Assembly: GCA_045656285.1 (NCBI GenBank)
Contig: JAZOQY010000036.1
Span: forward strand, 1,027 to 65,026
Direction of reading: 5' to 3'
From: Kiritimatiellia bacterium
Lineage (GTDB): Bacteria > Verrucomicrobiota > Kiritimatiellia > RFP12 > UBA1067
Length of the DNA: 64,000 nt
Shown: in pieces, positions 1 through 36,283 of the stretch
How positions within the stretch are numbered: the first letter of the stretch is position 1
How the letters are laid out: each line of letters starts with the position of its first letter
The notes under the pieces: generated by a model
What the model was told of the DNA's origin: nothing
Seen by the model: only the letters and a program-made list of their open reading frames with translations
Database searches by the model: none
Position numbers and translations under genes: made by a program

Positions 1-3000
1 GGTTATGCCGATGCATTGACTAACTCTCTTCCGATTAGGTTGCAGTGGGTCGGCTCTAAGGGTACGAGCACGGTTAAGCTTTATCGTACGCGCGATTTAG
101 AGAAGAGCGCGTCGGCTGAGCCTCTTTATACGGCTCAGACTGAGGGTAACGCTATTACGTACTTCGATCCTGAAGTCGGTCGAAATTATACTTGGACTGT
201 TACCGACTCTACCGGTGCGACTGCGACGGGTCACTTTTATACAATGCAGCGCACTCCTCGCATTATTAATCACGACCAGAATCCTTATTCTCACGGCGGT
301 GAGGCGAGTGTCGGGCGCGATATCGGCGGTTGGCTTACTTCTGACGGTACTAAGCGCGTTCAGCAAGGCTTACTTTACCGTTCTGCTCAGTTGGAATTTT
401 GCAGTTCGCGAGATAATGAAGAAATATATTCTCCCCTTACGCATCTTCAGGATAATTTAAAGGTCCGTTTGGATGTCGATCTTCGTCAGGGTGTGGATCA
501 TTTGGTTAAAAATGGATTTGTGGCTACGAATGGTTGGGTCGGCGCATGGGACGGCTGGGGTTGCGAATGGAATGATCGCGGCTATTTGCTTATTGATGAA
601 TCCAGTATTGGACCGCTCGTAAGGCGTTATTGCGTTGACTATTATGCTCCCGGTCAGTTCCCGTCTTATAATGCGCTATTCAGCCAGGATAAGTATAAAG
701 CTTCTTTCTGGATGGGATTTTACGAACTTTATAAGTCAATTAAGAAAGGTGAGCCTGCCCTCTTCCATTGTTCCCATGGTAAGGATCGTACTGGTGCGCT
801 CGCGTATATTATCTTAGGCTCTCTCGGTGTTTCTGAAACTGATTGCCGCCGTGACTTCGGCTTTACCTGGTATTCTGACGCCAAGAGCGACGTGGCTATG
901 AATAAACCGGGCGATAGCGATGTAATGGGCTACCTCGGTCTTAACAGTATTAAATCTAAATTGGATGCTTACTCCGGTTCTAATTTTCAGGAGGATTGCG
1001 TAGCGTATCTTAAGGATTGCTGCGCTAAGGCTGTAGCCAGCGGGAAGTATAACGGTTCCAGCGATTCGACCGCCGTTATCGCCGACTTCCAGTCTATAAT
1101 GCTTGAAGATATCGAGACTAAGTCTGTAGCTGCTAAGGTTGCTAAGCCTACTGGCAATTCGTTCAGTTATACTGGCGGCGAACTCGTAGGTATTCCTGAT
1201 GATGAGCGCTACACTATTACGGGAGTTTCTAAGGCGACTGACATTGGCTCTTATACGGCTACACTCGCTTTAAAGTCGGGATATACTTGGGCTGACGGCA
1301 CTACCGCTAATGCGCAGATTTCGTGGTCGATTACTGATGTTGTCGCCAGCGCGGGAATTACTAAGAATGCGATTTCTGACGCGGGTTATTCGGTAACCGG
1401 TCTTGGTAAGGATGGCGATGAGGTTGCAGTAGTTATTACTAACTATTTTAATTCTTTTACATGGAAGGCTCCTAAGGATCTTAAGTACGTTAAATATCTC
1501 GTCGTCGGCGGCGGTGGCGGCGGTGGCGGTCGCGCGGCATACGCTATGAGCGAATATGAAGGCGGTGCCGGTGGTGGCGGCGGCGGTGTTGTCGCAGGTT
1601 CAATTTTTAGCCTTAAAGCCGGCGATAAAGTTACTATCAGCGTCGGCGCCGGCGGTGATGGTGGTAGTAAGTCCACGTCTTATTCGACAGGTACTACCGG
1701 CAAGGGCGCAGGTGCAGCCGGCTCTAACTCGTCCTTTAAGGTTAATGATGTTGATTTTGTAACTGCGTTCGGCGGCGGTAATGACGCGGGTCACGGTGTA
1801 GTCGCTCCTCAGGGCGGATCTAACGCCGGTAACCGCGGTAATGTTACAACTGCCCAATCTTACACTGCAGCTGGTTCAATCGGCTCGAGCGCTACTTCGC
1901 TTCTCTCGTACACGATGTACGGTAATAAGGGTGGCGCAGGTCTCGCTGGAGTATATTGCGTTGCTGCTGGCGGCGGTGGTGCTACTCAAGCAGGCAGCAG
2001 CGCTCTTAAGTTAAGCGACGGTGTTTATGCTGCCGGTAATGGCGGCTTAGGTCTTCTTTCTGATATTACCGGTACGCGCACGGTTTATGGCTCAGGCGGC
2101 GGCGCTGGCGCGGCATCTAAGACTGAAGTCGCTTATGCCGGTAAGGGTGGTGACGGTGCCGGTGACGGCGCGATCGAGGGTTGCGGCACGAACGCGCTCG
2201 CCAACCAGGGCGGCGGCGGCGGCGGTGGCGCTCTCAGCGACGACAGCGATAAGGATGCCAGCGGCGGTAGCGGTGGCTCCGGTATCGTCGTACTTCGTTA
2301 TTCAGTCAAGGCTCAGCCTGAGGCTGAAACTCCTGTTGTAGTTTCTGAGAATAAACTTATTATCACTTACGGTGACTCTGTAACGAGAGGCTCTAAGGCT
2401 AATGAAGTTACGATGGATGATCGTAAGACTTACTTCGGCGGTCGCCTGAAGGGTGTTGCGAATGTCCCCGAGAGCTATCCTTACTGGCTCTCCGGATTCC
2501 TCTCCGATAATTATAATGTCATTAACCAGTCTCGCGGCAGTACCCTCGCGAGCCACGTTTCGGCTTGGTTCGGCGTTCAGGAAGTTTTGGTTAATACGGC
2601 TATTACGCTCCCTAAGTCCGGTAGCGTAACTCTTAACAAGAAGCTCGTATTTAACAATTGCACCTACGGTAATTCGATGGATGCATTACCTGCTGATGCA
2701 GACCTTAAGGGCTTTATTACTCCTGTTTATCCGCTTTCTGAGAATTATACAGCCGGAACTACGAGCGATTCTATTGTCGGTACGTTAGGCGGCTATCGCG
2801 TAAGAATTCAGGGCGATGATGTTGCGAGCCTTAAGGTCACGGCGCTTGATACTCTCGCGGCGGATGTGACGATTCCTGCCGGTTCAGTATTTATTCCTGA
2901 GAGCGCGACTGTTGAAGAATATAAGAGCGCTATTAAGATCGTCTGTATGGGCGGTAACGACTGGATCGGGAATCGTAACGGCGATTACGGCGAGGATGAT

Positions 3001-6000
3001 CCTTATACGTATACTTATAAGAACCATATTCGTCCTCTGGCGATGAAGATTAAAGCAGAAGGCGGCAGATACCTCATCGTTTCTCCTCTCTTTAATCCTG
3101 ACGGCTCCAGCCCCAGCGGTGATGTCGAGTCCCCAGAGCCTACCGAGACCGAAAAGCTTTACGCGGCTGATTTCGGAGAGAATTATTTCAACTTGCGCCT
3201 CGCGTTCGTTCAGAATGCTGAGCGTATCGCCAAGGAGCTAGATATTAAGATTAATGGTGAATGGTATGATTTTGGCGGTTCGATTATCGCGAGTGACTCT
3301 GTTCACCTTACGTCCGCCGGTTATAAGATTAAGGCGGCTTTAATTCGCGATAAGCTCGTTTCGCTCGGGTATATTACAGAAGTTGTTAAACCTGTCTACA
3401 CGACAGAGTTCGCGTATGACGGATCCGTTAAGCAGTGCGTACCTTCGGGCTCTGGTTACGCGGTTTCGGGTGTAAACGAGGCTTCTGAAACTGGCGAATA
3501 TAAAGTTCTTATTACGCTCGAACCTGGTCGTGTTTGGAGCGACGGAACTACTGATCCTATTGATGTTACCTGGACTATCGCTCAGCTTTCGGCTGGTGGT
3601 GAATCTTTCGTTCTTAAGGTCGATTCGGCCGACGGTAAACTTGTGAGCAGCCTCGGCGAAGGTGAGAATGAATATGCGGCCATCTTTACTACGGCTAATA
3701 AAGAAATTACTTGGGAAGTTCCTACCGACCTCGTTAATGTTCAGTTCCTCGTCGTCGGTGGCGGCGGCGGTGGCGGCGCCATCAGTAGCACTCAAGGTGG
3801 TGCCGGCGGTGGTGGCGGCGGTGTCGTTACTGGTATCGTAAACTCGCTCTCAAGAGGTCAGAAGATTAAGCTTTTTGTCGGTAAGGGCGGTGCTGGCGGT
3901 ACGACTACGACCGAAACGACTGTTTCTAGTCGCGTTGGCGTCGACCCTGACGGCGATGGCACTGAGTACGGCGTAGGTGGTGCATATTCTGGTCAAGACA
4001 GCTATTTCGCTGTAGACTCGGTTGAGTATGCTCGCGCTTATGGCGGTGCTGGTGACCCAGGCGCTGGTCTTAACGCTAAGCTCGGAGGCTCTAACTCGGG
4101 CGGTAGAACAACGACTGCTCAAGGTACACCGAAGAAGGGTGCGATCGGTGCGGCGGCAGCTGAGAACATTCTTAATTACAAGATTTTTGGTAACAAAGGC
4201 GGTGTCATACTTTCTACAACTCCTAAGGCTGCTGCTGGCGGTGGCGGCGCTATGACGGTTGGCGAGAATGCGAAAAAGACGAGCAGTTATCAAATTGGTG
4301 GCGGCGGCGGTGAGGGCGTTGTATCGACGATTACCGGCTCTGAAATTGTGTACGGCTCTGGTGGCGCTGGCGGCTTAAGGGGTAATATCGTTGAGGGTAA
4401 TATGGCGGGTTACGGCGGCTCGGGCGGTACGGGCGCCGGCGACGGATCCGGCGAATCGGCTAAGGCCAACCAAGGTGGTGGCGGCGGCGGCGGTACTACT
4501 TACCCGAAGAGCGCGACCGAGGGCTCTAATGCATTGGATTGGAAGCCTGATGCGATTATCGGTGGTAACGGCGGCAGCGGCATTGTAGTTCTTCGCTTCT
4601 CGATTCCCGGTGCTGACGAGAAGCTGAAAGTTGATGAGGTTACAGCTCTTATTAAGAACTATGTCTATGATGGTACAGAACATACTTGCGGACTTTCGTC
4701 TACAGATGTAAGATATACAATCAGCGGTGTAACTAAGGCAACCGAGGTCGGGACTTATACTGTTACTGTAACTGTTAAAGATGGTTGGATATGGAATGAT
4801 AATAATCCAGAGCCTTCAAGATCGTTTACTTGGAAGATTACTCAGGCTACGAACGAGTGGGTAACTGAGCCTTCTATTTCGAAGACGGCTTGGGATGCGG
4901 GCGCTACTGTAACGTATTCTATCGGTGAAGCTAAGAGCGGAACGCCGGTAGTAGTAACGATTAAGAAGGATAGTGCAGCGTTCTCAGGTACGCTCGCGAC
5001 AATGAAGGATTGGCAGCCTGGTTTCTATAGCATTACCTTCTCGGTAGCTGCGACTTCGGGCTATACCGGGCTAACTAAAACCTTAACTGTAAATGTAACT
5101 GATCCTAATGAAGAGATCGGCGAGGTAACGATTGATAAAAAGTGGGGTTATATTACTAAGCCTGCTGATAACGAATATATTCTCGTATTTACTAACCATA
5201 CTGCTACTGCAATGCAGTGGACAGCTCCCGCAGCGTTGCAGAATGTCCAGTTCCTCGTCGTCGGCGGCGGTGGCGGCGGCGGTGCTGACGGCCGTAGTAC
5301 TGTTGCTGGCGCCGGTGGTACCGGCGGTGCTGGCGGCGGCGGCGGCGGTGTCGTTACAGGCCTTGTTAATTTCGCTAAGGGTAGTGTAATTAGCGTTGCT
5401 GTTGGTAAGGGCGGCTCTGGCGGTAAAAAGGGTGTTATAACTCGAAATATAACATTCGTTGGTAATGATGAAAAAACACATACTGCTTACGGTGATTCTG
5501 GTAAGGCTGGCGACTCTTCATTCTCTGTCGGTGGTAATGTATACGTAAAAGCGTATGCGGGCGGCGGCGATTTAGGAGCAAAAAATAATACTGATTCTAT
5601 TTCGAATTGTCCTGAAGACGGTGGCTCAGGCTCTGGTGCGCGTTGGAAATACCGGTATAAAGACAACACTACCCAGAGTAAGGCTACTAAAGGTTATGTT
5701 CTTGATGATACCTCGCTTATTCCGTATTATAAAGCATTTGGTAATCCTGGCGGTCTTAATACATATAATTATGTTGCCGGCGGTGGTGGCGGCGCTACAG
5801 CGAAAGGTGGAGATACATATTATAAGACAGTAACAACAACCCATTGCGGAAAGCAGGAAGAACGTTATGCTGGTGATGGTGGCGAGGGCTTGAAGTCTTC
5901 GATTACTGGAACGGCTGTAGTTTATGGTTCTGGCGGCGGCGGCGGCAGCGGTGTATCTAAGGCTAGAACTGATAAGACATCAATGGATATTTATTTAGGT

Positions 6001-9000
6001 AAAGGTCCTGGCGGTAAGGGTGGTACAGGTGCAGGTGACGGTAATGCTGCTGCTGAAGCTAATGGGTCAAGCGCTAAGGCTAACCAAGGCGGCGGCGGCG
6101 GTGGCGGCGGCTATATGGCCAATGGCGGCTCCGGTGGCTCCGGTATTGTGGTATTCCGCTTTACTGTAGATACCGGACAGACTGAAGAGCCTGAAGAAGA
6201 GCTTATCGCTGTAGCGAAGCCTGTTGTTAGCGAGACCTCGTTCACTTACGACGGTTCGGCTAAAAGCGTTGTAGCTTCTAACGCGGGCTATACGCTCGTA
6301 GGCAATGCTATGGCTACCGAGGCTGGTAACTATACTGTTACTATTAAGCTTAACGCTGGCTATGTCTGGAGCGATAACTCGACTGATGACATCGTAATTA
6401 ACTGGACGATCGTCGCGATCGAGGAGCCTTTCGAGCCTGGTGTTGTTGAGCTCGCTGGTACTTACGGCTATGTAGTTCCTAATGTTGGCGGAAACGCTAA
6501 TGAATACGCCGTTGTCTTTACAAACGAAAATGCTGGTGCGATAACTTGGCGCGTACCCGCAGACCTTGAGAATGTAGAATTCCTAGTTGTCGGCGGCGGC
6601 GGTGGTGGCGGCGGCGTAACGTCTGCAAACTTAGGCGGTGCTGGCGGTGGCGGCGGCGGTGTGATAACTGGCAAGATTTTCTCTGTTTCTCAAGGCGCAA
6701 CATTAACAATTAATGTCGGTAAGGGTGGTGCTGGCGGTAATACAGCGAAAGCAACTTCAGCTGGTGAATCTGGGTCAGCTTCAAGCATTGCTAATAACGG
6801 AGTTGTATATGTAAGCGCCCCTGGTGGCGGCGGTGATAGTGGAATGGATAATGAATCTGCCGATCGTGTTGGAAAACAAGGCGGATCTAATGCCGGTGCT
6901 CGTACGACATCAGTAGCAAGTCACACATTTAGTTCCTTTGTGACGAATTGTGCTTATGTAGTTGCCAAATCATATGGTAAGAAAGGTGGCTATACATATT
7001 CAACTGGCGCTGCCGCCTCAGGTGGTGGCGGTGGTGCGACAGCCGCTGGAGGAAATTCTACCTCGAATGCCGCTGGAGGTAAGGGTGGTGAAGGTTTAAC
7101 ATCTTCTATTACAGGTACAAGTGTAGTTTATGGTTCCGGCGGCGGTGGTGGAAATACTAAGGTTAGTGGTGATGCCTATGTCAACGGAGTTGGTGGTACT
7201 GGTGCCGGTGATGGTGGTAAGCACAGTGATGGACTTTATAATGCTAAATCTGGTCTCGCCAACCAAGGTGGTGGTGGCGGCGGCGGCGGTGGCCGTAATG
7301 TTGATGGCGGCGCACAATACCGTGGTAAGGGTGGTAATGGAGGCTCTGGTATCGTCGTACTTCGCTTCTCGATGCCCGTTGTTGTCGAGACGGTTAAGGT
7401 TGCTAAGCCTGTCGCTACACCGAGCTTTACATACGATGGCGCTGAGAAGGTAGCCCTCGCTTCTGGCGAAGGTTATGAGCTTAGCGGCACGACCCAAGCT
7501 GTTGATGCAGGTTCATATTCTGCTACAGCGACCTTAAAGAGCGGCTATGCTTGGAGCGACGATACGACCGAGGCGATTACATTTAACTGGACCATCGCTA
7601 AGGCTTCCAACTCTTGGAATACTAAGCCCGATATTACTAAGACATCCTGGTATACCGACGAAGACGCGGCGACTCTTACTCTCGGCGCGGCGAAGTTCGG
7701 TGAGGTTGTCACCTCTATGACTAAGGATGGCGAGGCGGTTACATTTAGTGAGACTCTCCCGACAGAGGCGGGTAATTATACGATTACCTTCGCAGTCGCA
7801 GATTCTAACAACTATGGCGCTCTTACTGAGACGATTGCATTTACTGTAATTGAGGCGAGCCCCGTTAAGGTTAATGGCAGCTACGGCTATGTTGTCCCTG
7901 GTCTCGGCGCTAATGGTAACGAATACGCCGTTGTCTTTACGAATGCTGCTTCTACTATTACTTGGACGGTGCCTAAGGATCTTAAGAATGTTCAGTTCCT
8001 CGTCGTCGGCGGCGGCGGTGGCGGTGGTGCTATCAATAATTCTTCCAATACGCGTACAACTGGCGCTGGTGGCGGCGGTGGCGGTATTGTAACTGGTGTT
8101 GTAGCTACGCTTGAAAAGGATGCTGCTATTACTATTAACGTTGGTAAGGGTGGTACTGCTGGTAAGTGTGCTGTTAATCAATATGGCGGTTATGGTGCTT
8201 CCGAGAATGGCGGAAACAGCTCCTTCGTTTATGCTGATAAGCTTACCGTAACTGCGTATGGCGGTGGTGGTGATGGTGGTGCGCAAGATACGTCTTCAAG
8301 TGTTAGTAAGGCTAACGCTGGTAAGGCTGGCGGTTCGAGCGGTGGCTCTCGTCCCGGTTGCGCTACAAAGACAGCTCCTCTTTCAACTGAAGACTGTGTC
8401 ATTTCTCAAATTGATGGCCTAGTTGTTTATTCGGAAGTATTTGGTAAGGCTGGTGGCGCGGGTAATACTGAGCCTATATATGATTTTTATTGGATTGCTG
8501 GTGGTGGCGGCGGTGCTACTGAGGTTGGCGGCGATGGTAATGCCGCAGGCGACTGGCACGGCGGTAAGGGGGGTGAAGGTTTAGCCTCAGAGATCACAGG
8601 TGAATTGAAAGTTTATGGCTCTGGCGGTGGCGGTGGCTCCTCGGTGAATAACGATGGTTGTGGTGGTGAAGCGGGTACTGGTGCTGGTGCTGGTAATTCT
8701 CTCCATGATGGTCCTGGTTATGATGCTCTCGCAAATCAGGGCGGTGGCGGCGGCGGAAGCGGCTCTACCGCCAACGGTAACGGCGGTAACGGAGGCTCAG
8801 GTATCGTCGTACTTCGCTTCTCGCTAGAGGAAGAGGGCGAAACGCCTGAAGTTCCTCCAACTCCCGCTTCTGATTGGAGTGAAATTCCTTCGCTCTCTAA
8901 GAAGATCTTCAATGCTGGTACGGTGATAACCGTATTCAACGGCGCGAGCGAAAATAGAACGGTTACGGCTAACTATACAGCCACTCAGATTGCCGCGCTC

Positions 9001-12000
9001 AATCCCGGTACCTATACGTTCCGCGCGACAGCGAGTGCCGCGGGTGTCGAGCCCTTAGTTTACGAAATCGACTTCTGGGTACTCCCCGCCGATTTCAGCG
9101 CCGCTAATACGATTGTCTGCTACGGCGACTCCATCACTTACGGTGACGGCGCGGCAGAAATTACGATTGATAATCGCAGTAACTACTTCGATGGTCGCTT
9201 AAGCGGTAAGACGATTAAGGCTAACTATCAGTATTATCTCGCCGGTATGATCGATACTAAGTACAATGTTATCGGTCAGGGTAAGTCTCAGCAGTGGAGC
9301 GATACGATTCTCGCTTGGCTGGGCGGCGTTGATACTGTTTCGCGCTTTGACGCTACGCTTCCTGCCGGCGGTGTTGGCGTTTGGACGCCTACCAATATTG
9401 TATTTACTGCTGATAATCCGTACGGTATTAATGGCGGCTTACAGTATGTACGCGACCTTCAGTATCCTCACTTGGTAAACGGTAAATACAATAACGATGG
9501 TCAGCTTAACTACTTCGCTGGTCTTCAGGCGCCTGAATATCCCGCGTTCGAAACATATCCTGAGCCGTCGGGCGTTTATGGTTCGATGACCGGTTGGTTC
9601 GGCGATAAGCGCGTTCGTATTCACGGCACTGAAGTTGGTCACCCTTACTTTAGCCGTAAGGATACTGGCGGCTATGGTACCGACCAGGTCTGGGAGCGCG
9701 TCAGCGTTGAAGGCTCCGAAACGGTAATTCCTGCAGGAACTCCGTTTAAGCCCGATACGGCGCTCGTTTATAATGACGCGATTTCGGTAATCTTCACTGG
9801 TACGAATGATGAAATGGGTCAACCTTATTGGCCGGCTAGCAACCCTAAGGATTATACAACCTACATTTCGATGATTTCCGGCACGGTAGCTAAGATTCCG
9901 TCTGGTCGTTATGTTGTTGTATCTACCGTTTCCGGTAGTCATCGTTCCGACGAAATCGAGTCAGCGTTTGCTAAGGAGTTTGGCGAGCATTATCTTAACC
10001 TCTATAAGTTGATGGAGTTTTACGGTCTTAAGACGGCGGTTAAGCTCGGCGCTATGACCCAGACTCAGGCTGACGCGACAACTTGGAATACTAAGACAAC
10101 CGGTCTCATGGGCGACTCCGTCCACCCGAACGAGAAGGGCTACCAGGTTATCGCATACTTCATTAAGCAAAAACTCATCGAGCTTAACTACATCGAGGGC
10201 AAGCGCGATACCGATATCAGCTTTAGCTATGTCGATAAACCTACGGTAGATGTAACGAGCTTTACTTATGATGGTACTGAGAAAGTAGTTATCGCTGAAG
10301 GTGAGAATTACACTCTAACTGGTACAGCTAAGGCGATTAACGCAGGCTCTTATACAGTGATTATTACTCCAAACGCTGGCTTCGGTTGGTCTGATGGTAC
10401 GATTGGTGCTGTTACGATTAATTGGACGATTGAGAAAACATCTGTTGAGCCAGGTCAGCCAGACGTTGGCGGTGGTGAAAATCCCGAAGTTGGTTCAAAT
10501 CTTACCATTGTAAGTCCGGCTGATTATTCGACTGTTTCGACGATGAGCGAAAAGTTAAAGTCGATTATCCAAAGTGCGGATATGCTTAAGACTTCTACAT
10601 TTACGACGGCCGGTACTGCTACTCGTAAGATGTACAGTAACGAGTATTGCACTAACTCGTTGCCTGTTAAGCTCGAGTGGACCGGTAATGCCGCGTCTTA
10701 CACGGTTAGCGTTTATCGTACGCGCGACCTTGAATCGGGCGATGCTAAGGCGCTTTATAGCGTAACTACGAGCGAAAACTCCATTCTTTATTGGGATCCT
10801 GAAGTTGGCCGTAATTATACGTGGACTGTAGATGACGGCTCTTCGGTAGCTGTTGGTCACTTCTATACAGAATCTGGTGTACCGCGCCTTATCTACGCCG
10901 ATAAGAACGGTCCCGATGGTCCTGGTATGGACTGCCTTAACGGCCGCGATCTTGGCGGTTGGGTTACGACCGACGGTAAGGTCGTTAAGCAGAGCATGAT
11001 TTACCGCTCGGCTGAACTTGAGACTTGCTCACCTACCAACTCCATCGGTATGCGCATTGAAATGCCTTATCTCGCTGATGTTCTTGGTATTAAACTTGAT
11101 ATAGATCTTCGTTCTACGAACGAGGTTCTAGACACATATTTGGATTATGCCCTTTATTATAGCGCATGGAAAGATCTTGAAGTATCCAACATTAGTCCTG
11201 ATATTCCCCGTTTTAGCGCTCACCTAAACGCTAAGACATCATTCCCTTCATACTCAAAAGCAATTGTTACCGCAACTGATGATGGCGAAGATGCAGAGAA
11301 AAAGCGTAAGGCTATCTGGAAGGTTTTTGAGCAGTTTACGATTGAAGAGAATTATCCTATTATTTTCCACTGCGCTCACGGTAAGGATCGTGCGGGTACG
11401 GTAGGCTATATTCTTTTAAGTGTATTAGGCGTTCCTGCCGATGATGCTAAGCGCGATTTCGGTCTTTCATGGCTTTATTACGTTAATGAGCCGATGATTG
11501 ACGGTTACGGCTATACGCCTATTGATGCGGCAGTATTGAATTTCCCATCATACGGTGGAGCTACATTAAAGGAGCAGTGCGAAAATTATCTCGTTGTCTG
11601 TGCGCGTGATGCCGGCGTTTCGGAATCTGTTGCACGTGAGAAGATCGCTAAGTTCAGATCTTTGATGCTTGAAGAGCCTGAAACAAAGATAAGCACTTCG
11701 TCCAATGAGACTGTTACATATACCTGGACCGGTAACGGCGGCGATAATAAGTGGAATAATCCCGCTAACTGGGTTTCGCCTGAAGATTCATACGGTTATC
11801 CTAACGCCGAGAATGCGGTAGTTTATTTCGATTCTGAAGTAATTGCTAATATCGATCTTGGAGGTAATATTTATAAAGCTAAACCCATTTTCGGTAATAT
11901 GTGCGATGTTGCTTTCGTAAATGGTACGCTTAATGTTATGGCCGAATCGTTTACTTTCGGAGCGGCAGATGCGACCATAACTTTGAATTCTAATGCTAAA

Positions 12001-15000
12001 ATCGTTGCTTCTGGCGCGTTGAAGATTCTTGGAACTTTAAATGTTGTCATTCCTGAAGGCGGGCGCGATTTGCCCATTAGCGCGGCGTCGCTCGCTGCTG
12101 ATACAGCAGCTAAGATTAATCTCGATTTAATCGATTTCTCAGCCGCGGGCGAGGTTACGATCGCGAGCTTTGGCGAGACTTTTGGTAGTGCTGCGGCTTT
12201 AGAATATACCTTTACGGTAGCCGGCAATACGGTAGCCGATCGCGGCGCAATTACAACGCCCGAATCTAAGGCGATAGTTTATTCCCAGGATAAGAAGACT
12301 GGCGTAATCTCGCTCCCCAATGCTGTTACGGGTCTTGTTTATTCTGGCTCTGAGCTTGTTGGTGTTCCCGCTGGCGAAGGTTATACGCTCGCTGGCGATT
12401 ATAAGGCTGTCAATGCCGGAACTTACACAGCTCAGGTCATCTTAAAAGATGGTTATACCTTCTCTAACCAAACTGATGGTACGGTAACCTGGACAATCGC
12501 TAAGGCGAATAACGAGTGGGTTCAGAATCCTGAGATTTCGCTTGATACCTGGAATATTGGTGAGGCGGGCGGAGTTCTTACGCTTGGCGTTACTAAGTTC
12601 GGTACGGTAACAGCGACCATTTCTAAGGATGGCGGCGAAGCTCAAGTCTTTAATGGTCAGCTCCCGACGACGAAGGGTAATTATGTAATTACTTACTTAG
12701 CTTCCAGCGAGGGAACAGATAATTATAATGCGATTTCTGTTGGCGAACTTACCAAGAGCATTGCATTTACGATAACCGCTAATCCGTCTGATTTAATGGC
12801 GTATGCGGGCTACGTTACCTACCCGGAGCCGATTTTCTATGTTAGTGGCGTCATGAAGCTTGGCGAAGGTACTACGACAGCTAGAATTAAGTATTCTATT
12901 AATTCTACGGTGTGTAATAATGTTAAAGAAGTCGTTGTTGATGAGAACGGATACTTTAGAGTTAATATTCCTTATCAGAATGCAGAGGATACTTTAACAT
13001 GGGAAGTTGAGGTAGTAAATTCTGTATCGTCTGATGTGCTTACTGTCGCTAAGTCGACCATCAAGCGCGCTGGCGATCCATCTCGTGTTACATATAAGTG
13101 GAGAGGTAAGGGTGCTAATAATAAATGGCGCAGCCTCGCTAACTGGGAAGGTTTCTCGGGAACGGTAGGTAATAATAATCCTTGCTGCTGGGGCTACCCT
13201 GGTGGTATTACTACACATATACATTTTGACCAATCTACAGCACCTGAAGGTATTGATCTCGAGGGGCAAACATGGAAATCTATCGATAATGGATTCTTCG
13301 TTTTTGAAGAAAATGTATTCGTTAAGATGAAAAACGGTACGCTCTTAATTGATGGAGGTCTTACAACATTTGAAAATGACACGGTCGGCTTAATCGGTGC
13401 GAATAATTCCACTCTTGTATTAAATAAAGTTGTTCTGAAATATGCGGTTGATAATAATGTTACTAAATATCTTATTCCGGCAGAAGGCTTTACGCTTGTA
13501 TATGAAGGTGATAATACAGTTGATTGGTGTTATTGCCCACAAAATGCTAATTCTAAGTTTGTTGTTCGCGATGGAACGCTCTCGGGCAATAGTTTTAGTA
13601 CGAAGGCGATTGCTGGCACTCACGTTGTTGAAATTTCTAATGGCGTTTGGAGTGTTTCGCAGAATGTTTCTAACGATAAGGGTATTGGCGCTAAGGTAAT
13701 CTTTCGCGACGGTACTGATCGTGAAGCTCAATTTAAGACATCAGGTTCTCTTAAGATGTACGGTACGTACGATATTAAGATTCCTGCTGACGGCAGAACT
13801 AATCCTGCTGTTGAGGCGAAGACTCTTACAAGTTGCGGTAGTTCTAAGATTGTTCTCGATGTAACTGATTATAAGAGCTCGGCCAAGGTTCCTCTCGTTA
13901 AGTTTACGAGCACAACTGCTCAAACAGCTCCAACATCGACTCTTGAAGCTTATGCCGATGGCGTAAATGTAACTTCGGAGCGCGGGGCCAAGTTAACATT
14001 TGAAGGTAATATTCTTTATTACTCTCAGAACGAAGTTAAAGATCCTGTAGTTCTTGAGAAAATTGAAAAGCCTGAATACGCTACGACATCATTTATTTAT
14101 GATGGAGCTGAGAAGGTTGTTGTTATAGAAGGTGAGAATTATACGATTATCGGTACGGCTAAGGCGACGAATGCCGGTTCTTATACAGCGACCATTACAC
14201 CTAACGAAGGCTTCTCTTGGGCTGACGGTACAACTGACGCGATTACCGTTAATTGGACAATCGCTAAGGCGACTAACGTTTGGACGACTGAACCTTCGAT
14301 TACTCTAACTGAGTGGACGGTAGGTGAAACGGCTGGCGTTTTGACGGCGGGTGTAGCTAAGTTCGGCGATGTTGCAGTTACGATTAACGGCGAAGAGTTT
14401 ACTCAAATGCCTACAGCCGCCGGCACATATACAATTACGTATACTGTAGCTGACACTGCGAATTATAGCGCTCTTGCTAAGACAATTACATTTAATATTA
14501 AAGCTCCTGTAGTTGAACCAGATCCCGATGAGCCTGGACCTGGTGAAGGTGAAGATGAGCCTGTAGAGCCTAAGCTCGAGATTGATCCTGCGGTAGGTTA
14601 TATCGTTACTGATCTTGGCGAACTTAAAGATCAGGTAGCGGTAGTCTTTACGAATGCTGATAATTACGCATGGACGATGCCTAAGAGCGCGAAGAATGTT
14701 CAATTCCTCGTTGTTGGCGGCGGTGGCGGTGGCGGCGGTGCCGTTAATGGTGGGTCGAACGACAAGCAGCAAGGAGGCGCCGGTGGTGGCGGCGGTGCTG
14801 TCGTAACAGGCTTTGTAAAATTACTCAATATCTCTGATATTCTTACTATTACAGTTGGCGAGGGCGGTGATAATGGTACTGGTGGATCTGGCACAACAAC
14901 AGGTACTGGTAGTGCTATTTCTGGAGGATTAAGTTCGTTCTCAGTTGGCGCAGTTTCTTACATCACTGCATATGGTGGTGGTGGCGGCGGCGGTTATAAT

Positions 15001-17130
15001 ACAGCTGCTGTTGGGGTCGGAGGTTCCAATTCGGGAGGAACTAAGAGTACTGCCGATACTGCGCTTGCATCAGTTACATATATTGGAGCTGATGCAGCAT
15101 CGAATATTTACGATGCACAGATATTTAGAAACAAAGGAGGCATGAGCTATACTTCAGACTCCGGTTACTCTTCCGGTGGCGGTGGCGGTGGCGCTACTAG
15201 CGTAGGTCTTGCTTCTACAGGTTCTAATAATGGCGGTATGGGTGGTGCAGGATTTACTACTGATATTACTGGCGAAAGCCTTGTATATGGTGCTGGTGGT
15301 GGCGGTGGTATTGGTAAAAACGGAGGAGCTTCATCAGATGCCGATACAAGTGCTGGCCATGGAATAGCTTTACAGGATGGTACATCTGCTAAAGCTAACC
15401 AAGGCGGTGGCGGCGGTGGCGGTAGCTACGGTAAGAATGGTGGTGAGGGCGGCTCTGGCATCGTCGTTTTGCGCTTTGCATATTCAGATAAAGATATTGC
15501 AGTCGATGCCGAAACTAATGTTAAGCCTAAGATTTCGTCCAAGGCGTATACGGGCTCTGAGTTAACGTCTGGTATCGTTGATACTTATGCTTATAGTGTA
15601 GAAGAGCTTACTCAGGATCGTGTTACTGTCGGTAAGAAGACAGTTCGCATAACACTTAATGATGGCTATGCTTGGAGCGACGGTGATGTTAACAAATCTA
15701 AGGATTTCGATTGGTATATTGCTGAAGTAGAGTCTATGGATAACGGCTATAAAGTCGTTGGTCTTGGTGAAAAGGGTAATGAAGTAGCTCTTGTGTTTAC
15801 GAATCATGCCGCGACAATCAACTGGACTGCTCCCGCTAACCTTACGAATGTTCAATTCCTCGTCGTTGGTGGCGGCGGTGGCGGCGGCGCTGATAATACA
15901 ACATACGATGAATTTTATCAAGCCGGCGGCGGCGGCGGCGGCGGCGGTGTCGTTACAGGTCTTATGAATCTTAATAAAGACGACGCTGTTTCAATTAAGA
16001 TTGGTGTAGGCGGCAGTGGTGGTGTTCGTGCCGATAAAGTAGCTCCGTATGGTGCTGTTAAGACGCAAGCTGAGAATTCTTCCTTTACTGTAGGCACAAC
16101 AGTTGTTACTGCTAATGCTGGTGGTGGCGATCCTGGCTCAACCTCCGCTAACTCTACGTCTAGCGGCGCGCAAACCGGTGGCGCAGGTGGTTCGAGCTCC
16201 GGTTCTCGTTCGGGAGCTACAGGTCGAGGCGATGCGACTCGTGGTAATGTAGAAGGTTCTGACGGCAAAGTCGTATCTTATACTGCTTTTGGTAATCAGG
16301 GTGGAGCTGGTGCTTCGAGTTATCGTGCTGGTGGTGGTGGTGGTGCTACTACCGAAGGTAAAGCCGCTTCTGACATCTTTGGTGGTGCCGGTGGTGAGGG
16401 TCTTGCTTGCGATATTACAGGCACGATGCTTGTCTATGGTTCTGGCGGCGGCGGCGGAGCCGTTAATAGCGGTGCTTTGGGCGCTGGCAATGGTGGTACT
16501 GGCGCCGGTAATGGTGGTTTTACGACAGCCGCGACTTCTGCACTCGCTAACCAGGGCGGTGGCGGCGGCGGTGGCGGCCGCACCGGCAACGGCGGCAACG
16601 GCGGCTCGGGTATTGTTGTGTTTAGGTATGTTTTGCAGCCTGATGTCAACGGCACTCCAATATCTCCTGAAAAAGTTTTTGATGAAGCGCGTGTGTCTAA
16701 GAAGATTACTTATCCTTCTGCTCCTTCGCTTACGGGCGAAGAAGGATCTCAGGTAATTACTTGGAGAAATGTAAGGTGTGCAGTTCCTAAGTATTATACT
16801 GCGACTTTGAACGATAATGTTATTTCTCTTAAGCTTAATACGTTTGCCAGACCTGTAATCTGCGAGACCGACGAAAACAAGGGTGATGCTATTGTAGTTT
16901 CAGATAAGACGGTTACAATCGGTATTACCAATACTAAGGTCGGCCTATTCTATAGCGTAGAGGCGCATGATCAACCGGCATGTGCGGCAAACCCCATCTC
17001 TGTCACCGACCCGATTCCAGCAGATGGAGAAACAGCCGTATTGACGATTGATAAGCCGGAAGTCGAGGGAAAAGTGCTGGATTCGGCGTTTTTCAAGGTT
17101 GTTGTAACCGATGAAAATCAGCAAAAGTGA
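1..17130 (+). CDS. Giant modular surface/secreted protein, 5' end outside the window (7 glycine-rich domains, 2 PtpB/Y_phosphatase3-like domains, 2 SGNH/GDSL domains, Ig/MBG-like spacers, beta-helix-like segments)
   Basis: Frame 1 is open from base 1 (GYADALTNSLP), so the TTG at 16 is probably not the start. Motifs: HCSHGKDRTG (766-795) and HCAHGKDRAG (11368-11397); GDSVT...GGND...DSVH and GDSIT...GTND...DSVH; seven (Y/F)LVVGGGGGGG...ANQGGGGGGG...GGSGIVV(L/F)R units; many YDG...G.Y......GY.W.DG.T......WTI spacers. Confidence 0.93.
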   Translation, partial: GYADALTNSLPIRLQWVGSKGTSTVKLYRTRDLEKSASAEPLYTAQTEGNAITYFDPEVGRNYTWTVTDSTGATATGHFYTMQRTPRIINHDQNPYSHGGEASVGRDIGGWLTSDGTKRVQQGLLYRSAQLEFCSSRDNEEIYSPLTHLQDNLKVRLDVDLRQGVDHLVKNGFVATNGWVGAWDGWGCEWNDRGYLLIDESSIGPLVRRYCVDYYAPGQFPSYNALFSQDKYKASFWMGFYELYKSIKKGEPALFHCSHGKDRTGALAYIILGSLGVSETDCRRDFGFTWYSDAKSDVAMNKPGDSDVMGYLGLNSIKSKLDAYSGSNFQEDCVAYLKDCCAKAVASGKYNGSSDSTAVIADFQSIMLEDIETKSVAAKVAKPTGNSFSYTGGELVGIPDDERYTITGVSKATDIGSYTATLALKSGYTWADGTTANAQISWSITDVVASAGITKNAISDAGYSVTGLGKDGDEVAVVITNYFNSFTWKAPKDLKYVKYLVVGGGGGGGGRAAYAMSEYEGGAGGGGGGVVAGSIFSLKAGDKVTISVGAGGDGGSKSTSYSTGTTGKGAGAAGSNSSFKVNDVDFVTAFGGGNDAGHGVVAPQGGSNAGNRGNVTTAQSYTAAGSIGSSATSLLSYTMYGNKGGAGLAGVYCVAAGGGGATQAGSSALKLSDGVYAAGNGGLGLLSDITGTRTVYGSGGGAGAASKTEVAYAGKGGDGAGDGAIEGCGTNALANQGGGGGGGALSDDSDKDASGGSGGSGIVVLRYSVKAQPEAETPVVVSENKLIITYGDSVTRGSKANEVTMDDRKTYFGGRLKGVANVPESYPYWLSGFLSDNYNVINQSRGSTLASHVSAWFGVQEVLVNTAITLPKSGSVTLNKKLVFNNCTYGNSMDALPADADLKGFITPVYPLSENYTAGTTSDSIVGTLGGYRVRIQGDDVASLKVTALDTLAADVTIPAGSVFIPESATVEEYKSAIKIVCMGGNDWIGNRNGDYGEDDPYTYTYKNHIRPLAMKIKAEGGRYLIVSPLFNPDGSSPSGDVESPEPTETEKLYAADFGENYFNLRLAFVQNAERIAKELDIKINGEWYDFGGSIIASDSVHLTSAGYKIKAALIRDKLVSLGYITEVVKPVYTTEFAYDGSVKQCVPSGSGYAVSGVNEASETGEYKVLITLEPGRVWSDGTTDPIDVTWTIAQLSAGGESFVLKVDSADGKLVSSLGEGENEYAAIFTTANKEITWEVPTDLVNVQFLVVGGGGGGGAISSTQGGAGGGGGGVVTGIVNSLSRGQKIKLFVGKGGAGGTTTTETTVSSRVGVDPDGDGTEYGVGGAYSGQDSYFAVDSVEYARAYGGAGDPGAGLNAKLGGSNSGGRTTTAQGTPKKGAIGAAAAENILNYKIFGNKGGVILSTTPKAAAGGGGAMTVGENAKKTSSYQIGGGGGEGVVSTITGSEIVYGSGGAGGLRGNIVEGNMAGYGGSGGTGAGDGSGESAKANQGGGGGGGTTYPKSATEGSNALDWKPDAIIGGNGGSGIVVLRFSIPGADEKLKVDEVTALIKNYVYDGTEHTCGLSSTDVRYTISGVTKATEVGTYTVTVTVKDGWIWNDNNPEPSRSFTWKITQATNEWVTEPSISKTAWDAGATVTYSIGEAKSGTPVVVTIKKDSAAFSGTLATMKDWQPGFYSITFSVAATSGYTGLTKTLTVNVTDPNEEIGEVTIDKKWGYITKPADNEYILVFTNHTATAMQWTAPAALQNVQFLVVGGGGGGGADGRSTVAGAGGTGGAGGGGGGVVTGLVNFAKGSVISVAVGKGGSGGKKGVITRNITFVGNDEKTHTAYGDSGKAGDSSFSVGGNVYVKAYAGGGDLGAKNNTDSISNCPEDGGSGSGARWKYRYKDNTTQSKATKGYVLDDTSLIPYYKAFGNPGGLNTYNYVAGGGGGATAKGGDTYYKTVTTTHCGKQEERYAGDGGEGLKSSITGTAVVYGSGGGGGSGVSKARTDKTSMDIYLGKGPGGKGGTGAGDGNAAAEANGSSAKANQGGGGGGGGYMANGGSGGSGIVVFRFTVDTGQTEEPEEELIAVAKPVVSETSFTYDGSAKSVVASNAGYTLVGNAMATEAGNYTVTIKLNAGYVWSDNSTDDIVINWTIVAIEEPFEPGVVELAGTYGYVVPNVGGNANEYAVVFTNENAGAITWRVPADLENVEFLVVGGGGGGGGVTSANLGGAGGGGGGVITGKIFSVSQGATLTINVGKGGAGGNTAKATSAGESGSASSIANNGVVYVSAPGGGGDSGMDNESADRVGKQGGSNAGARTTSVASHTFSSFVTNCAYVVAKSYGKKGGYTYSTGAAASGGGGGATAAGGNSTSNAAGGKGGEGLTSSITGTSVVYGSGGGGGNTKVSGDAYVNGVGGTGAGDGGKHSDGLYNAKSGLANQGGGGGGGGGRNVDGGAQYRGKGGNGGSGIVVLRFSMPVVVETVKVAKPVATPSFTYDGAEKVALASGEGYELSGTTQAVDAGSYSATATLKSGYAWSDDTTEAITFNWTIAKASNSWNTKPDITKTSWYTDEDAATLTLGAAKFGEVVTSMTKDGEAVTFSETLPTEAGNYTITFAVADSNNYGALTETIAFTVIEASPVKVNGSYGYVVPGLGANGNEYAVVFTNAASTITWTVPKDLKNVQFLVVGGGGGGGAINNSSNTRTTGAGGGGGGIVTGVVATLEKDAAITINVGKGGTAGKCAVNQYGGYGASENGGNSSFVYADKLTVTAYGGGGDGGAQDTSSSVSKANAGKAGGSSGGSRPGCATKTAPLSTEDCVISQIDGLVVYSEVFGKAGGAGNTEPIYDFYWIAGGGGGATEVGGDGNAAGDWHGGKGGEGLASEITGELKVYGSGGGGGSSVNNDGCGGEAGTGAGAGNSLHDGPGYDALANQGGGGGGSGSTANGNGGNGGSGIVVLRFSLEEEGETPEVPPTPASDWSEIPSLSKKIFNAGTVITVFNGASENRTVTANYTATQIAALNPGTYTFRATASAAGVEPLVYEIDFWVLPADFSAANTIVCYGDSITYGDGAAEITIDNRSNYFDGRLSGKTIKANYQYYLAGMIDTKYNVIGQGKSQQWSDTILAWLGGVDTVSRFDATLPAGGVGVWTPTNIVFTADNPYGINGGLQYVRDLQYPHLVNGKYNNDGQLNYFAGLQAPEYPAFETYPEPSGVYGSMTGWFGDKRVRIHGTEVGHPYFSRKDTGGYGTDQVWERVSVEGSETVIPAGTPFKPDTALVYNDAISVIFTGTNDEMGQPYWPASNPKDYTTYISMISGTVAKIPSGRYVVVSTVSGSHRSDEIESAFAKEFGEHYLNLYKLMEFYGLKTAVKLGAMTQTQADATTWNTKTTGLMGDSVHPNEKGYQVIAYFIKQKLIELNYIEGKRDTDISFSYVDKPTVDVTSFTYDGTEKVVIAEGENYTLTGTAKAINAGSYTVIITPNAGFGWSDGTIGAVTINWTIEKTSVEPGQPDVGGGENPEVGSNLTIVSPADYSTVSTMSEKLKSIIQSADMLKTSTFTTAGTATRKMYSNEYCTNSLPVKLEWTGNAASYTVSVYRTRDLESGDAKALYSVTTSENSILYWDPEVGRNYTWTVDDGSSVAVGHFYTESGVPRLIYADKNGPDGPGMDCLNGRDLGGWVTTDGKVVKQSMIYRSAELETCSPTNSIGMRIEMPYLADVLGIKLDIDLRSTNEVLDTYLDYALYYSAWKDLEVSNISPDIPRFSAHLNAKTSFPSYSKAIVTATDDGEDAEKKRKAIWKVFEQFTIEENYPIIFHCAHGKDRAGTVGYILLSVLGVPADDAKRDFGLSWLYYVNEPMIDGYGYTPIDAAVLNFPSYGGATLKEQCENYLVVCARDAGVSESVAREKIAKFRSLMLEEPETKISTSSNETVTYTWTGNGGDNKWNNPANWVSPEDSYGYPNAENAVVYFDSEVIANIDLGGNIYKAKPIFGNMCDVAFVNGTLNVMAESFTFGAADATITLNSNAKIVASGALKILGTLNVVIPEGGRDLPISAASLAADTAAKINLDLIDFSAAGEVTIASFGETFGSAAALEYTFTVAGNTVADRGAITTPESKAIVYSQDKKTGVISLPNAVTGLVYSGSELVGVPAGEGYTLAGDYKAVNAGTYTAQVILKDGYTFSNQTDGTVTWTIAKANNEWVQNPEISLDTWNIGEAGGVLTLGVTKFGTVTATISKDGGEAQVFNGQLPTTKGNYVITYLASSEGTDNYNAISVGELTKSIAFTITANPSDLMAYAGYVTYPEPIFYVSGVMKLGEGTTTARIKYSINSTVCNNVKEVVVDENGYFRVNIPYQNAEDTLTWEVEVVNSVSSDVLTVAKSTIKRAGDPSRVTYKWRGKGANNKWRSLANWEGFSGTVGNNNPCCWGYPGGITTHIHFDQSTAPEGIDLEGQTWKSIDNGFFVFEENVFVKMKNGTLLIDGGLTTFENDTVGLIGANNSTLVLNKVVLKYAVDNNVTKYLIPAEGFTLVYEGDNTVDWCYCPQNANSKFVVRDGTLSGNSFSTKAIAGTHVVEISNGVWSVSQNVSNDKGIGAKVIFRDGTDREAQFKTSGSLKMYGTYDIKIPADGRTNPAVEAKTLTSCGSSKIVLDVTDYKSSAKVPLVKFTSTTAQTAPTSTLEAYADGVNVTSERGAKLTFEGNILYYSQNEVKDPVVLEKIEKPEYATTSFIYDGAEKVVVIEGENYTIIGTAKATNAGSYTATITPNEGFSWADGTTDAITVNWTIAKATNVWTTEPSITLTEWTVGETAGVLTAGVAKFGDVAVTINGEEFTQMPTAAGTYTITYTVADTANYSALAKTITFNIKAPVVEPDPDEPGPGEGEDEPVEPKLEIDPAVGYIVTDLGELKDQVAVVFTNADNYAWTMPKSAKNVQFLVVGGGGGGGGAVNGGSNDKQQGGAGGGGGAVVTGFVKLLNISDILTITVGEGGDNGTGGSGTTTGTGSAISGGLSSFSVGAVSYITAYGGGGGGGYNTAAVGVGGSNSGGTKSTADTALASVTYIGADAASNIYDAQIFRNKGGMSYTSDSGYSSGGGGGGATSVGLASTGSNNGGMGGAGFTTDITGESLVYGAGGGGGIGKNGGASSDADTSAGHGIALQDGTSAKANQGGGGGGGSYGKNGGEGGSGIVVLRFAYSDKDIAVDAETNVKPKISSKAYTGSELTSGIVDTYAYSVEELTQDRVTVGKKTVRITLNDGYAWSDGDVNKSKDFDWYIAEVESMDNGYKVVGLGEKGNEVALVFTNHAATINWTAPANLTNVQFLVVGGGGGGGADNTTYDEFYQAGGGGGGGGVVTGLMNLNKDDAVSIKIGVGGSGGVRADKVAPYGAVKTQAENSSFTVGTTVVTANAGGGDPGSTSANSTSSGAQTGGAGGSSSGSRSGATGRGDATRGNVEGSDGKVVSYTAFGNQGGAGASSYRAGGGGGATTEGKAASDIFGGAGGEGLACDITGTMLVYGSGGGGGAVNSGALGAGNGGTGAGNGGFTTAATSALANQGGGGGGGGRTGNGGNGGSGIVVFRYVLQPDVNGTPISPEKVFDEARVSKKITYPSAPSLTGEEGSQVITWRNVRCAVPKYYTATLNDNVISLKLNTFARPVICETDENKGDAIVVSDKTVTIGITNTKVGLFYSVEAHDQPACAANPISVTDPIPADGETAVLTIDKPEVEGKVLDSAFFKVVVTDENQQK

Positions 17131-17216: not shown

Positions 17217-17246
17217 ACACGCTCAAAATAATTGTCTTTTAAGAAT

Positions 17247-18032: not shown

Positions 18033-18053
18033 AAATCTTAAAAAGGTAAAATC

Positions 18054-18944: not shown

Positions 18945-18985
18945 TTGTCTCGTGCTGTTGTTTTTATTTTGAAAGGTTTATTAGC

Positions 18986-20587: not shown

Positions 20588-20597
20588 TAAGAAGTAA

Positions 20598-22037: not shown

Positions 22038-22043
22038 TATGAA

Positions 22044-23168: not shown

Positions 23169-23171
23169 CCA

Positions 23172-36262: not shown

Positions 36263-36283
36263 CAATTCCACAAGGCGTCCATC

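Follow-up and report, generated by a model that had tools for sequence, protein, structure and literature searches.

A giant, putatively exported protein combining glycine-rich, phosphatase and candidate esterase modules in a Kiritimatiellia bacterium

The giant gene and the domain organization of its product

The stretch of DNA analysed here (referred to below as the window) comprises 64,000 nucleotides (nt) and corresponds to positions 1027-65026 of contig C36 (JAZOQY010000036.1) in the assembly GCA_045656285.1 of a Kiritimatiellia bacterium (genome G000). Its left end is occupied by a giant gene on the forward strand, whose product is the subject of this work. An initial annotation of this DNA had described one uninterrupted frame that is open at the left edge, and the list of open frames holds exactly this, viz. 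a single frame extending over positions 1..17130 (+), with 5709 codons followed by the stop codon at 17128-17130. It had also proposed that the N-terminus be recovered from the upstream part of the contig. The ATG is found there at C36:814, 213 nt 5' of the window start, and it is preceded by the sequence AAGGAG; the frame of 5786 codons is open throughout and the full product is 5780 amino acids (aa) long. The N-terminus of this protein reads MIRSVRYGVALAATILAFAFGAFGAP and, when judged by eye, it looks like a Sec signal peptide; the N-termini of the relatives described below resemble it. The giant protein is a single real chain, which going by its signal-peptide-like start is probably exported through the Sec pathway, and in this animal-gut Kiritimatiellae bacterium it is predicted to remain exposed at the surface of the cell or else to be set free.

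The giant protein was scanned against Pfam, as three overlapping thirds and then as 31 segments, using curated cut-offs, and the boundaries of its modules were determined by a chunked self-comparison together with hidden Markov models (HMMs) built on the protein's own modules. The order obtained with the latter is Nfn-PTP-IgA-Gly-SGNH-IgA-Gly-IgA-IgB-Gly-IgA-Gly-IgA-IgB-Gly-IgB-SGNH-IgA-Nfn-PTP-A1-IgA-IgB-mid-A2-IgA-IgB-Gly-IgA-Gly-Cterm. Both this order and the Pfam results match the arrangement given in the initial annotation (PTP, Gly, SGNH, four Gly, SGNH, PTP, two beta-helix-like units, two Gly and a C-terminal domain). The seven glycine-rich modules, which we will refer to as heads, are all matches to Gly_rich_2 (PF21722), with E values from 4e-11 to 2e-26 and scores of 43.7-94.0 bits against a cut-off of 24.3. 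They are located on the forward strand, as are all features given here, at 1372..2319 (Gly1, 2.4e-24), 3619..4617 (Gly2, 8.6e-13), 5131..6180 (Gly3, 4.4e-11), 6451..7386 (Gly4, 3e-25), 7870..8838 (Gly5, 1.8e-26, the copy used for modelling), 14581..15495 (Gly6, 5e-21) and 15730..16647 (Gly7, 1.5e-16). The two phosphatase domains, PTP1 (286..1134) and PTP2 (10915-11700), matched Y_phosphatase3 (PF13350) with 76.5 and 98.1 bits, respectively, against a cut-off of 22.2 (E 4e-21 and 1e-27). The two esterase-like domains of the GDSL/SGNH type gave marginal scores, SGNH1 (2317..3396) matching PF00657 with 24.1 bits against 23.6 and SGNH2 (9076..10230) matching PF13472 with 35.0 bits against 32.9.

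The first phosphatase domain is preceded by Nfn1 (1..291), a domain of about 140 aa whose first 45 aa lie 5' of the window; it has no library match and is repeated at 10501-10920 as Nfn2. The second copy is the first part of a block of about 1270 aa (10501..14277), termed the variable block, which contains Nfn2, PTP2, the short beta-helix unit A1 (11701-12255), two immunoglobulin (Ig)-like spacers, the mid domain (12781-13080), the beta-helix unit A2 (13081-14010) and one further Ig-like spacer. The chain ends in a C-terminal domain of 159 aa (16651..17127), whose last residues are ...AFFKVVVTDENQQK. In all, there are 14 spacers within 1120..15735 and they are of two kinds, nine of the IgA kind (about 75 aa) and five of the IgB kind (about 90 aa). 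These had been described initially as Ig/MBG-like, and domains acting as spacers are indeed present between the modules, but the matches of the segments to the Ig, MBG, He_PIG, Big or PKD families of Pfam were all sub-threshold; an Ig/MBG-like nature of the spacers is plausible from their sequences. The Nfn, A1, A2 and mid domains and the C-terminal 159 aa have no match in Pfam or NCBIfam, and NCBIfam yielded no family at the curated level for any of 12 segments of the giant protein.

Several known types of large extracellular protein were considered and rejected for this chain. A giant adhesin of the RTX kind, exported by a type I secretion system, does not agree with the Sec-like N-terminus or with the Pfam results, where no RTX, beta-barrel or LPXTG parts were found in the giant protein. 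Autotransporter and two-partner secretion (TPS) proteins are made unlikely by the absence of an autotransporter beta-barrel or a TPS domain at either end, as judged by the Pfam and NCBIfam sequence libraries, and a cellulosome-type scaffold by the absence from the 31 segments of any cohesin or dockerin match in Pfam at E<=1. Giant repeat adhesins of the SiiE or LapA type have long Ig-like stalks in common with the giant protein, whereas the latter possesses a Sec-type N-terminus rather than a C-terminal type I secretion signal and it carries four enzyme domains in its chain.

Fold of the glycine-rich heads

A structural model of Gly5 was obtained from an alignment of 47 sequences, in which Gly5 was joined by the six remaining heads of the giant protein and by 40 of 59 small proteins retrieved from the databases, and the model has a pLDDT of 92.2 and a pTM of 0.93. 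A sequence search of the PDB with one of the glycine-rich heads gave no match. With Foldseek, the model had 19 matches in the PDB at E<=0.001, and the ones listed were all phage tail-tip or fibre chains or glycine-rich domains of ALK/LTK. In structural comparisons with VIA, the model had a Z score of 15.9 to the tail-tip chain 9d93_Qb of Bxb1 (214 residues aligned, root mean square deviation 3.7) and scores of 15.8 and 15.3 to 7ypx_A and 7yfw_a from the fibre of cyanophage Pam3; the scores to ALK/LTK were 8.7-10.4, and the next unrelated entry was at Z 4.1. At least 272 entries of a viral model library also match the Gly5 model at E<=0.001, most of them named 'glycine-rich domain-containing protein' and originating from cyanophages, a Pelagibacter phage, a haloarchaeal phage and prasinoviruses. 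Bundles of the polyproline-II type are described for 7YFW and for gp33 and gp29 of 9D93, and likened to the adhesin of phage S16, in a passage of one report (PMC13243192). As judged by the model, the Gly_rich_2 heads have the polyglycine-II-bundle fold, consisting of a bundle on a beta-sandwich, that is seen in the phage tail-tip and fibre proteins and in the ALK/LTK domains.

The phage structures (Bxb1 9D93 and Pam3 7YPX/7YFW) share with the heads both the Pfam family and the fold. In the phages this domain is located at the tail tip or fibre, whereas here the heads are part of a cellular chain with a predicted Sec signal, in which they occur seven times and are interleaved with enzymes. The glycine-rich domain of ALK/LTK also has the same fold (Z of about 9-10), and in ALK a single copy binds a cytokine. 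Because the fold is shared with receptor-binding or brush domains of phages and with the ligand-binding domain of ALK, it is a reasonable reading, made by analogy, that the glycine-rich modules serve as binding heads.

Phosphatase and candidate esterase domains

In the aa numbering of the window, the P-loops are present at aa 256 (HCSHGKDRTG, PTP1) and aa 3790 (HCAHGKDRAG, PTP2). Both SGNH domains contain the motifs YGDS (aa 790 and 3041) and DSVH (aa 1099 and 3372), and block III is seen in the alignment as GGND in SGNH1 and GTND in SGNH2. The alignments comprised 14 PTP and 22 SGNH copies from the giant protein and its relatives; the P-loop HCxHGKDRxG (CX5R) was invariant in 14/14 of the former, and GDS, GxND and the His of block V in 22/22 of the latter. 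The catalytic motifs of all four enzyme domains had been reported as kept, and they are present in both copies of each enzyme and invariant across the aligned relatives. Blocks I, III and V can be recognized in both SGNH domains, with the Gly of block II lacking a confident assignment. The GDS, GxND and DxxH blocks are common to these domains and the known SGNH/GDSL hydrolases (carbohydrate acetylesterases and lipases), from which the domains of the giant protein differ in that some 150 additional aa separate block I from block III (recorded in SGNH1). A PDB sequence search with PTP2 matched the solved chain 8dhi_A (E 2.9e-10), and no paper was found on structure 8DHI; the same search with SGNH2 gave nothing useful. 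On these grounds, the two PTP domains are considered to be Cys-based phosphatase domains of the PTP fold with intact P-loops and predicted activity, and the two SGNH domains are regarded as candidate SGNH/GDSL esterases.

The Y_phosphatase3 family (PF13350; 8dhi_A) shares with PTP1 and PTP2 the HMM family and the CX5R loop, and the Nfn+PTP unit of about 420 aa occurs as a stand-alone protein in the same bacterial family, whereas in the giant chain it is embedded twice. Matches to this unit were found in 42 of the 101 genomes of the family, G000 included, and they are mostly in frames of about 300-700 aa, i.e. in stand-alone proteins. Close copies (88%) were found only in the same-genus genome G228, where they are in frames of 2084-3016 aa. 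An ESM Atlas search with Nfn2 gave scores of only 0.79-0.82, which is the level of chance.

One stand-alone protein of this kind (Nfn+Y_phosphatase3, 406 aa) is encoded in G000 itself, at positions 8328-9548 of the C47 locus, next to genes for a GH113 mannanase-family protein, a TonB-receptor plug protein and an Amidase_3 protein. In G228, Nfn+PTP units are present in no fewer than four frames (2084-3016 aa; contigs C94, C12, C68 and C46), several of which may be cut by contig ends, and this suggests that a paralogue family of such giants exists.

Beta-helix units and the variable block

The A2 unit was modelled from 10 sequences (including A1, four paralogues in G000 and four sequences from G228), and the model has a pLDDT of 82.9. 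Foldseek gave 0 matches for it at E<=0.001. In a wide structural search with VIA, 41 of 48,161 chains reached Z>=8, and among the 50 best there was hardly any that was not a beta-helix or solenoid protein. Highest in the list were the SRRP chain 5nxk_A (Z 11.9, 223 aligned, root mean square deviation 3.7), pertactin (11.5) and the CBA120 tailspike (11.0), and they were followed by UpaB, Vag8, IcsA, tapirin and HMW1. Going by the model, A2 has a right-handed beta-helix fold, with the proviso that scores for repeat folds of this type show a shared arrangement and not a family or function. The term beta-helix-like, which had been applied initially to both units, is borne out for A2 by these results, and A1 is a shortened copy of A2. 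Known beta-helix adhesins, such as autotransporters and SRRP, are thus matched by these units at Z 10-12, and a PDB sequence search with the A1-A2 region found nothing.

The distribution of the A2 unit is narrow: at E<=1e-5, none of the 150 further class genomes searched gave a match to it, and of the five same-genus genomes one gave a match and four did not. The variable block in which it is located (Nfn2-PTP2-A1-IgA-IgB-mid-A2-IgA) is missing from the relatives P0003-P0008 and P0010 and it is present in P0002. The guanine plus cytosine content in this part of the window (10001-14000) is 0.44-0.45, compared with 0.50-0.52 in the first 10 kb, and the block appears to have been inserted from a paralogue.

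Relatives of the giant protein and exchange of heads

Of the 1038 candidate proteins that were scored, 57 giant ones are related to the giant protein at E<=0.001. The combination of PF13350 with PF21722 is found in 11 of these (P0002-P0012), which are 3144-5311 aa long, show 61-92% identity in their best local alignments and include one entered at NCBI as 'tyrosine-protein phosphatase [Kiritimatiellae bacterium]'; in the remaining 46, Gly_rich_2 is combined with different partners. The initial annotation had recommended a search for the PTP, SGNH and glycine-rich architecture beyond this genome, and the same module order does occur in other assemblies: P0003-P0008 (4508-4539 aa) equal the giant protein module for module except for the block of about 1270 aa, and P0002 (5311 aa) has this block and the same C-terminus and is without one of the heads. 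The view that the architecture is that of no described protein goes too far: no paper was found on it, or on PF21722 in bacteria, in the literature searched (domain tables in supplements could hold it), but 11 database proteins share PTP with Gly_rich_2 and one of them is already named as a phosphatase. Except for the C-terminal domain and the beta-helix unit, the main domains are all from known Pfam families, and the close relatives in the databases are unstudied.

Other enzymes are found in other members of this group. P0013 carries a carbohydrate esterase family 4 (CE4) deacetylase domain (4e-23) together with SGNH and C-terminal domains like those of the giant protein, and in P0040 matches to GDPD (30.2 bits against 23.6) and Peptidase_S9 (27.6 against 22.6) were obtained. 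From their sequences, giant Gly_rich_2 proteins carrying hydrolases appear to be a recurring theme. PhoD_N and Pur_ac_phosph_N matches in P0049 and P0054 were not accepted as enzymes, as no stretch passes alone and they overlap with fn3-like matches.

When the giant protein was compared module by module with eight relatives, the identity of the heads varied to a large extent. For Gly4, P0003 shows 95% identity and the seven remaining relatives 53-57%; for Gly5, the values are 90-94% for P0003, P0004 and P0010 and 50-72% for the remaining five; and for Gly3, two relatives have 94-95% and the rest 65-78%. The identities of SGNH1 and of the Ig modules next to the heads are for the most part in the range of 83-97%, as are those of most of the neighbouring Ig and enzyme modules, and the C-terminal domain is of two kinds, being 92% identical in P0002 and 23-39% in the other relatives compared. 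In a colinear contig from a sequencing run (X3, described below), the parts with less than 90% identity are located within Gly5, Gly6 and Gly7. From this range of 50-95% identity, we infer that the heads are the parts exchanged among close relatives, in the manner of specificity cassettes, and because they are the exchanged parts they are also the ones likely to set specificity.

Gly_rich_2 was detected in 34 of the 151 genomes of the class that were sampled, mostly in long chromosomal frames. In G000 it has 13 matches, seven of them in the giant protein and the rest on contigs C32, C43, C44 and C25. The same kit of modules (Gly_rich_2, IgA/IgB, mid and A2-like) is seen in other large proteins of this genome, at C32:88247-94633 and C43:69553-79806, and further loci containing it are present on C25 (a frame of 1506 aa) and C44 (a frame of 1407 aa) and at C17:17586-18620 and C14:8967-9980.

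Large extracellular catabolic proteins of bacteria of the Planctomycetes-Verrucomicrobia-Chlamydiae (PVC) group are discussed in passages of PMC12057145 and bioRxiv 10.1101/2023.11.21.568195, where giant PVC proteins are read as surface weapons or cellulosome-like structures. The text of the latter does not contain 'glycine', 'esterase', 'SGNH' or 'Kiritimatiell' at any point. As far as these passages of the two sources go, such proteins (the giant genes of Omnitrophota and the 'large catabolic proteins') are likewise very long, exported and multi-domain, with catalytic and binding parts, but they carry other domain sets, and the giant protein described here is much shorter than the Omnitrophota giants.

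The C-terminal domain

A HMMER search with the C-terminal domain over 1.84 billion representative proteins yielded 66 matches at E<=0.001, of which 39 were at E<=1e-10. The proteins range in length from 159 to 4528 aa, and in nearly all 66 the match is at the extreme end of the protein. The pattern [FY][FYW][KR][IVLA] is present in the last 30 residues of 54 of 64 of these proteins (P0063 and P0004 not being counted), and a typical tail reads ...FFKVVVTD... or ...FYKVYVTD... followed by 0-12 residues. In G000, the tail motif occurs in the last 25 residues of seven of the 3734 frames of at least 150 aa, with two control windows giving 5 and 1, and five of these seven frames rank among the ten longest frames of the genome. 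The other tail-motif frames in G000 are at C43:80273-92962 and on contigs C57 (2129 aa), C18 (1885 aa), C25 (1506 and 236 aa) and C46 (247 aa), and the form of the motif in this set is ...[FY][FY][KR][IV]xV[TS]D plus 0-12 residues.

The profile of this domain matched in 8 of the 301 phylum genomes sampled, mostly of the same order, and one genome contained nine copies. The ESM Atlas gave no usable match for it, and no NCBIfam family was found at E<=1. TIGR04183 and TIGR04131 are C-terminal domains of the type IX secretion kind; a search of G000 (93% complete) for the type IX markers SprA_N and PorP_SprF gave no match, and the control genomes gave none either. As the domain is terminal on varied exported proteins, it may act as a signal for sorting or anchoring, as yet undescribed, in this Kiritimatiellae order.

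Possible function of the giant protein and alternative explanations

We propose, and consider the chances to be evenly divided, that the giant protein is an exported multivalent binding scaffold which strips a polymer or a cell surface of phosphate and acyl groups. The seven heads would bind a repetitive target, such as a glycan or the envelope of another cell, in a multivalent and strain-specific manner, with the spacers holding the modules apart. The phosphatases, each with an Nfn accessory domain, would take phosphate monoesters off the bound polymer and the esterases would take off O-acyl groups, and the stripped polymer would then be accessible to the other exported glycosidases and phosphoesterases of the organism. 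The beta-helix units may add further binding, and the C-terminal domain could direct sorting or anchoring. Combinations of this sort are known elsewhere: laforin and SEX4 are PTP-fold glucan phosphatases that are joined to a carbohydrate-binding domain and act on polysaccharide. The initial annotation had similarly suggested a surface scaffold that binds and strips its target. The single chain, the modules named, their kept motifs and a head fold like that of phage and ALK domains all stand, whereas adhesion, the target and the activities belong to what we infer.

A number of observations weigh against this proposal, in which the target, the binding, the localization and both enzyme activities are predictions. 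The heads are given a binding role because they resemble domains of phages and of ALK, which bind ligands of different kinds, and no route across the outer membrane was identified for the giant protein. The SGNH assignment is based upon marginal Pfam scores, motifs and weak, GDSL-only matches of a profile to PDB sequences (best E 0.0035), and a shared-word search through proteins of 209-665 aa turned up none that is a stand-alone relative of SGNH2, which is weak evidence of absence. The RNA support is also weak, consisting of contigs of 349-562 nt from one metatranscriptome run, which can hold DNA. A promoter-like site precedes the downstream CE4 gene. G228 also possesses the CE4-GDPD gene pair, where it follows an unrelated frame on a different contig, and the 1.4 kb of sequence available upstream of the pair contain no giant gene. 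Lastly, the contigs of the sequencing runs show many joints that skip parts of the giant gene or go back within it, with sides of 22-54 nt; examples from the contigs of runs X1-X3 are the joints of 803 to 7981 (in three runs), 3778 to 15448 and 5282 to 16548. These joints may represent paralogues, other module orders or cross-matches between repeats.

The joints would also be in keeping with an assembly artefact, i.e. a chimera of several genes connected through repeated glycine-rich modules, an explanation that we regard as highly improbable. In addition to the joints, it would draw on the fact that a repetitive gene is being considered in a metagenome-type assembly of 58 contigs, on the lower guanine plus cytosine content of the 10-14 kb block and on the coverage of the left 7 kb (1-7300), where among the pieces listed there were only short contigs, the longest in X1 being 1262 nt. 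However, the direct DNA repeats inside the giant gene do not exceed 170 nt and have identities of 60-87%, a divergence too great for them to have collapsed the assembly; its frame is open over all of its codons; P0002 has the variable block and the same C-terminus; and P0003-P0008 keep the module order in the left 3500 aa. Of 20 sequencing runs that were found, none contained half of the sampled words (the best share was 0.36), and four runs labelled as gut metagenomes were compared with the window. Other runs, which contain small shares of these words and carry bovine or gut labels, were not taken to indicate the habitat. One of these, X3, which is from a different study than X1 and X2, contains a contig of 10,650 nt that is colinear with the window on 7308-8031, 8778-14704 (307 differences, 15 gaps), 15394-15896 and 16411-17398. 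The variable block is thus spanned by this contig at its two ends, and the contig extends into the downstream gene; as it is about 5% different from the window it is from another strain. The concern about a chimera, which the initial annotation had asked to be addressed with reads, is thus made unlikely by this colinear contig. Just as improbable, or slightly more so, is the explanation that the gene encodes the tail fibre of a prophage. Gly_rich_2 heads are common in proteins of phages and viruses, but the giant protein has a Sec-type N-terminus and enzyme modules in its chain, the flanking genes, upstream as well as downstream, code for metabolic proteins or exported hydrolases rather than for phage proteins, and the spread of Gly_rich_2 over the class is mostly in large chromosomal frames.

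Two other explanations accept the chain as it is and differ in the role that they assign to it. In one of these, which we consider unlikely but deserving of serious attention, the giant protein is mainly a structural or adhesive surface fibre, whose enzyme-like domains bind without turnover or remodel the cell's own envelope. The chains of Ig-like spacers and the beta-helix units do resemble adhesins, with SRRP, pertactin, UpaB, IcsA and tapirin among the matches of A2, and the tail motif that is common to other large proteins of G000 would fit a common surface layer. On the other hand, the invariance of the catalytic residues of all four enzyme domains across the relatives is unexpected for pseudoenzymes that only bind, and the common occurrence of stand-alone Nfn+PTP proteins in the family argues for a working enzyme module. 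In the other explanation, to which we assign a similarly low likelihood, the giant protein is a contact weapon or scavenging tool, the heads recognizing neighbouring bacteria and the enzymes stripping teichoic acids, capsule or O-acetyl and phosphate decorations, either to kill these bacteria or to feed on their cell-wall material. The fold of the heads is the one used by phages in host-recognition domains, the heads vary like receptor-binding cassettes, and the neighbouring genes and the fused partners in other members include GDPD, CE4, alkaline phosphatase and GH20. Such enzymes fit the breakdown of teichoic acids and cell walls. However, no lysozyme, amidase or peptidase lytic domain was found in the chain with Pfam, no toxin or immunity gene adjoins the giant gene, the hydrolase genes do not adjoin a giant gene in G228, and in ALK the ligand of this fold is a protein cytokine, so that the fold does not by itself name the target. 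The passages of PMC12057145 and bioRxiv 10.1101/2023.11.21.568195, in reading giant PVC proteins as surface weapons, are on the side of the latter explanation.

A further elaboration of the scaffold proposal can be considered, which is speculative and rather improbable as a whole. According to this, a phage-fibre head has been taken over as an exchangeable targeting cassette, and by swapping heads strains would re-aim their phosphatase and esterase machinery, possibly at other microbes, with export to the surface taking place via a C-terminal sorting domain (FYKVxVTD) that is common to large exported proteins of this Kiritimatiellae order. If the proposal of a binding and stripping scaffold is correct, the giant protein would provide a natural case of enzymes fused to multivalent and swappable recognition heads of phage type, and it would widen the use of the polyglycine-II bundle from viruses and one animal receptor to the surface biology of bacteria. 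Extracellular phosphatases of the PTP fold would then be tools for glycan or envelope processing in the Kiritimatiellae of the herbivore gut, a group for which there is almost no experimental biology, and the family of C-terminal domains may mark a lineage-specific sorting route. All of this significance is provisional, and the domains themselves are from known families.

Neighbouring genes

The gene upstream of the giant gene is a fragment coding for a GH63-like glycosidase. Downstream, a run of genes on the same strand (17232..24578, +) encodes a CE4 deacetylase, a GDPD phosphodiesterase, a protein with TIM-barrel and 3-keto-disaccharide hydrolase domains, an alkaline phosphatase, a YibE/F protein and a GH20 protein, and the first four of these genes have signal-peptide-like starts. 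With a deacetylase, a phosphodiesterase, a phosphatase and a hexosaminidase, the run agrees in theme with the giant protein. CE4 and GDPD, which are directly downstream here, are also the domains that are fused to Gly_rich_2 giants elsewhere (P0013 and P0040). A functional link of the giant gene to the downstream hydrolases is tentative, these observations providing a weak hint of it. Further along the window, positions 35435-43031 contain genes of the Tad/Flp pilus type (RcpC/CpaB, a secretion ATPase with an FHA domain and a T2SS-F protein), and these are followed by a gene for a protein of 1448 aa with a TMEM260-like protein O-mannosyltransferase domain.

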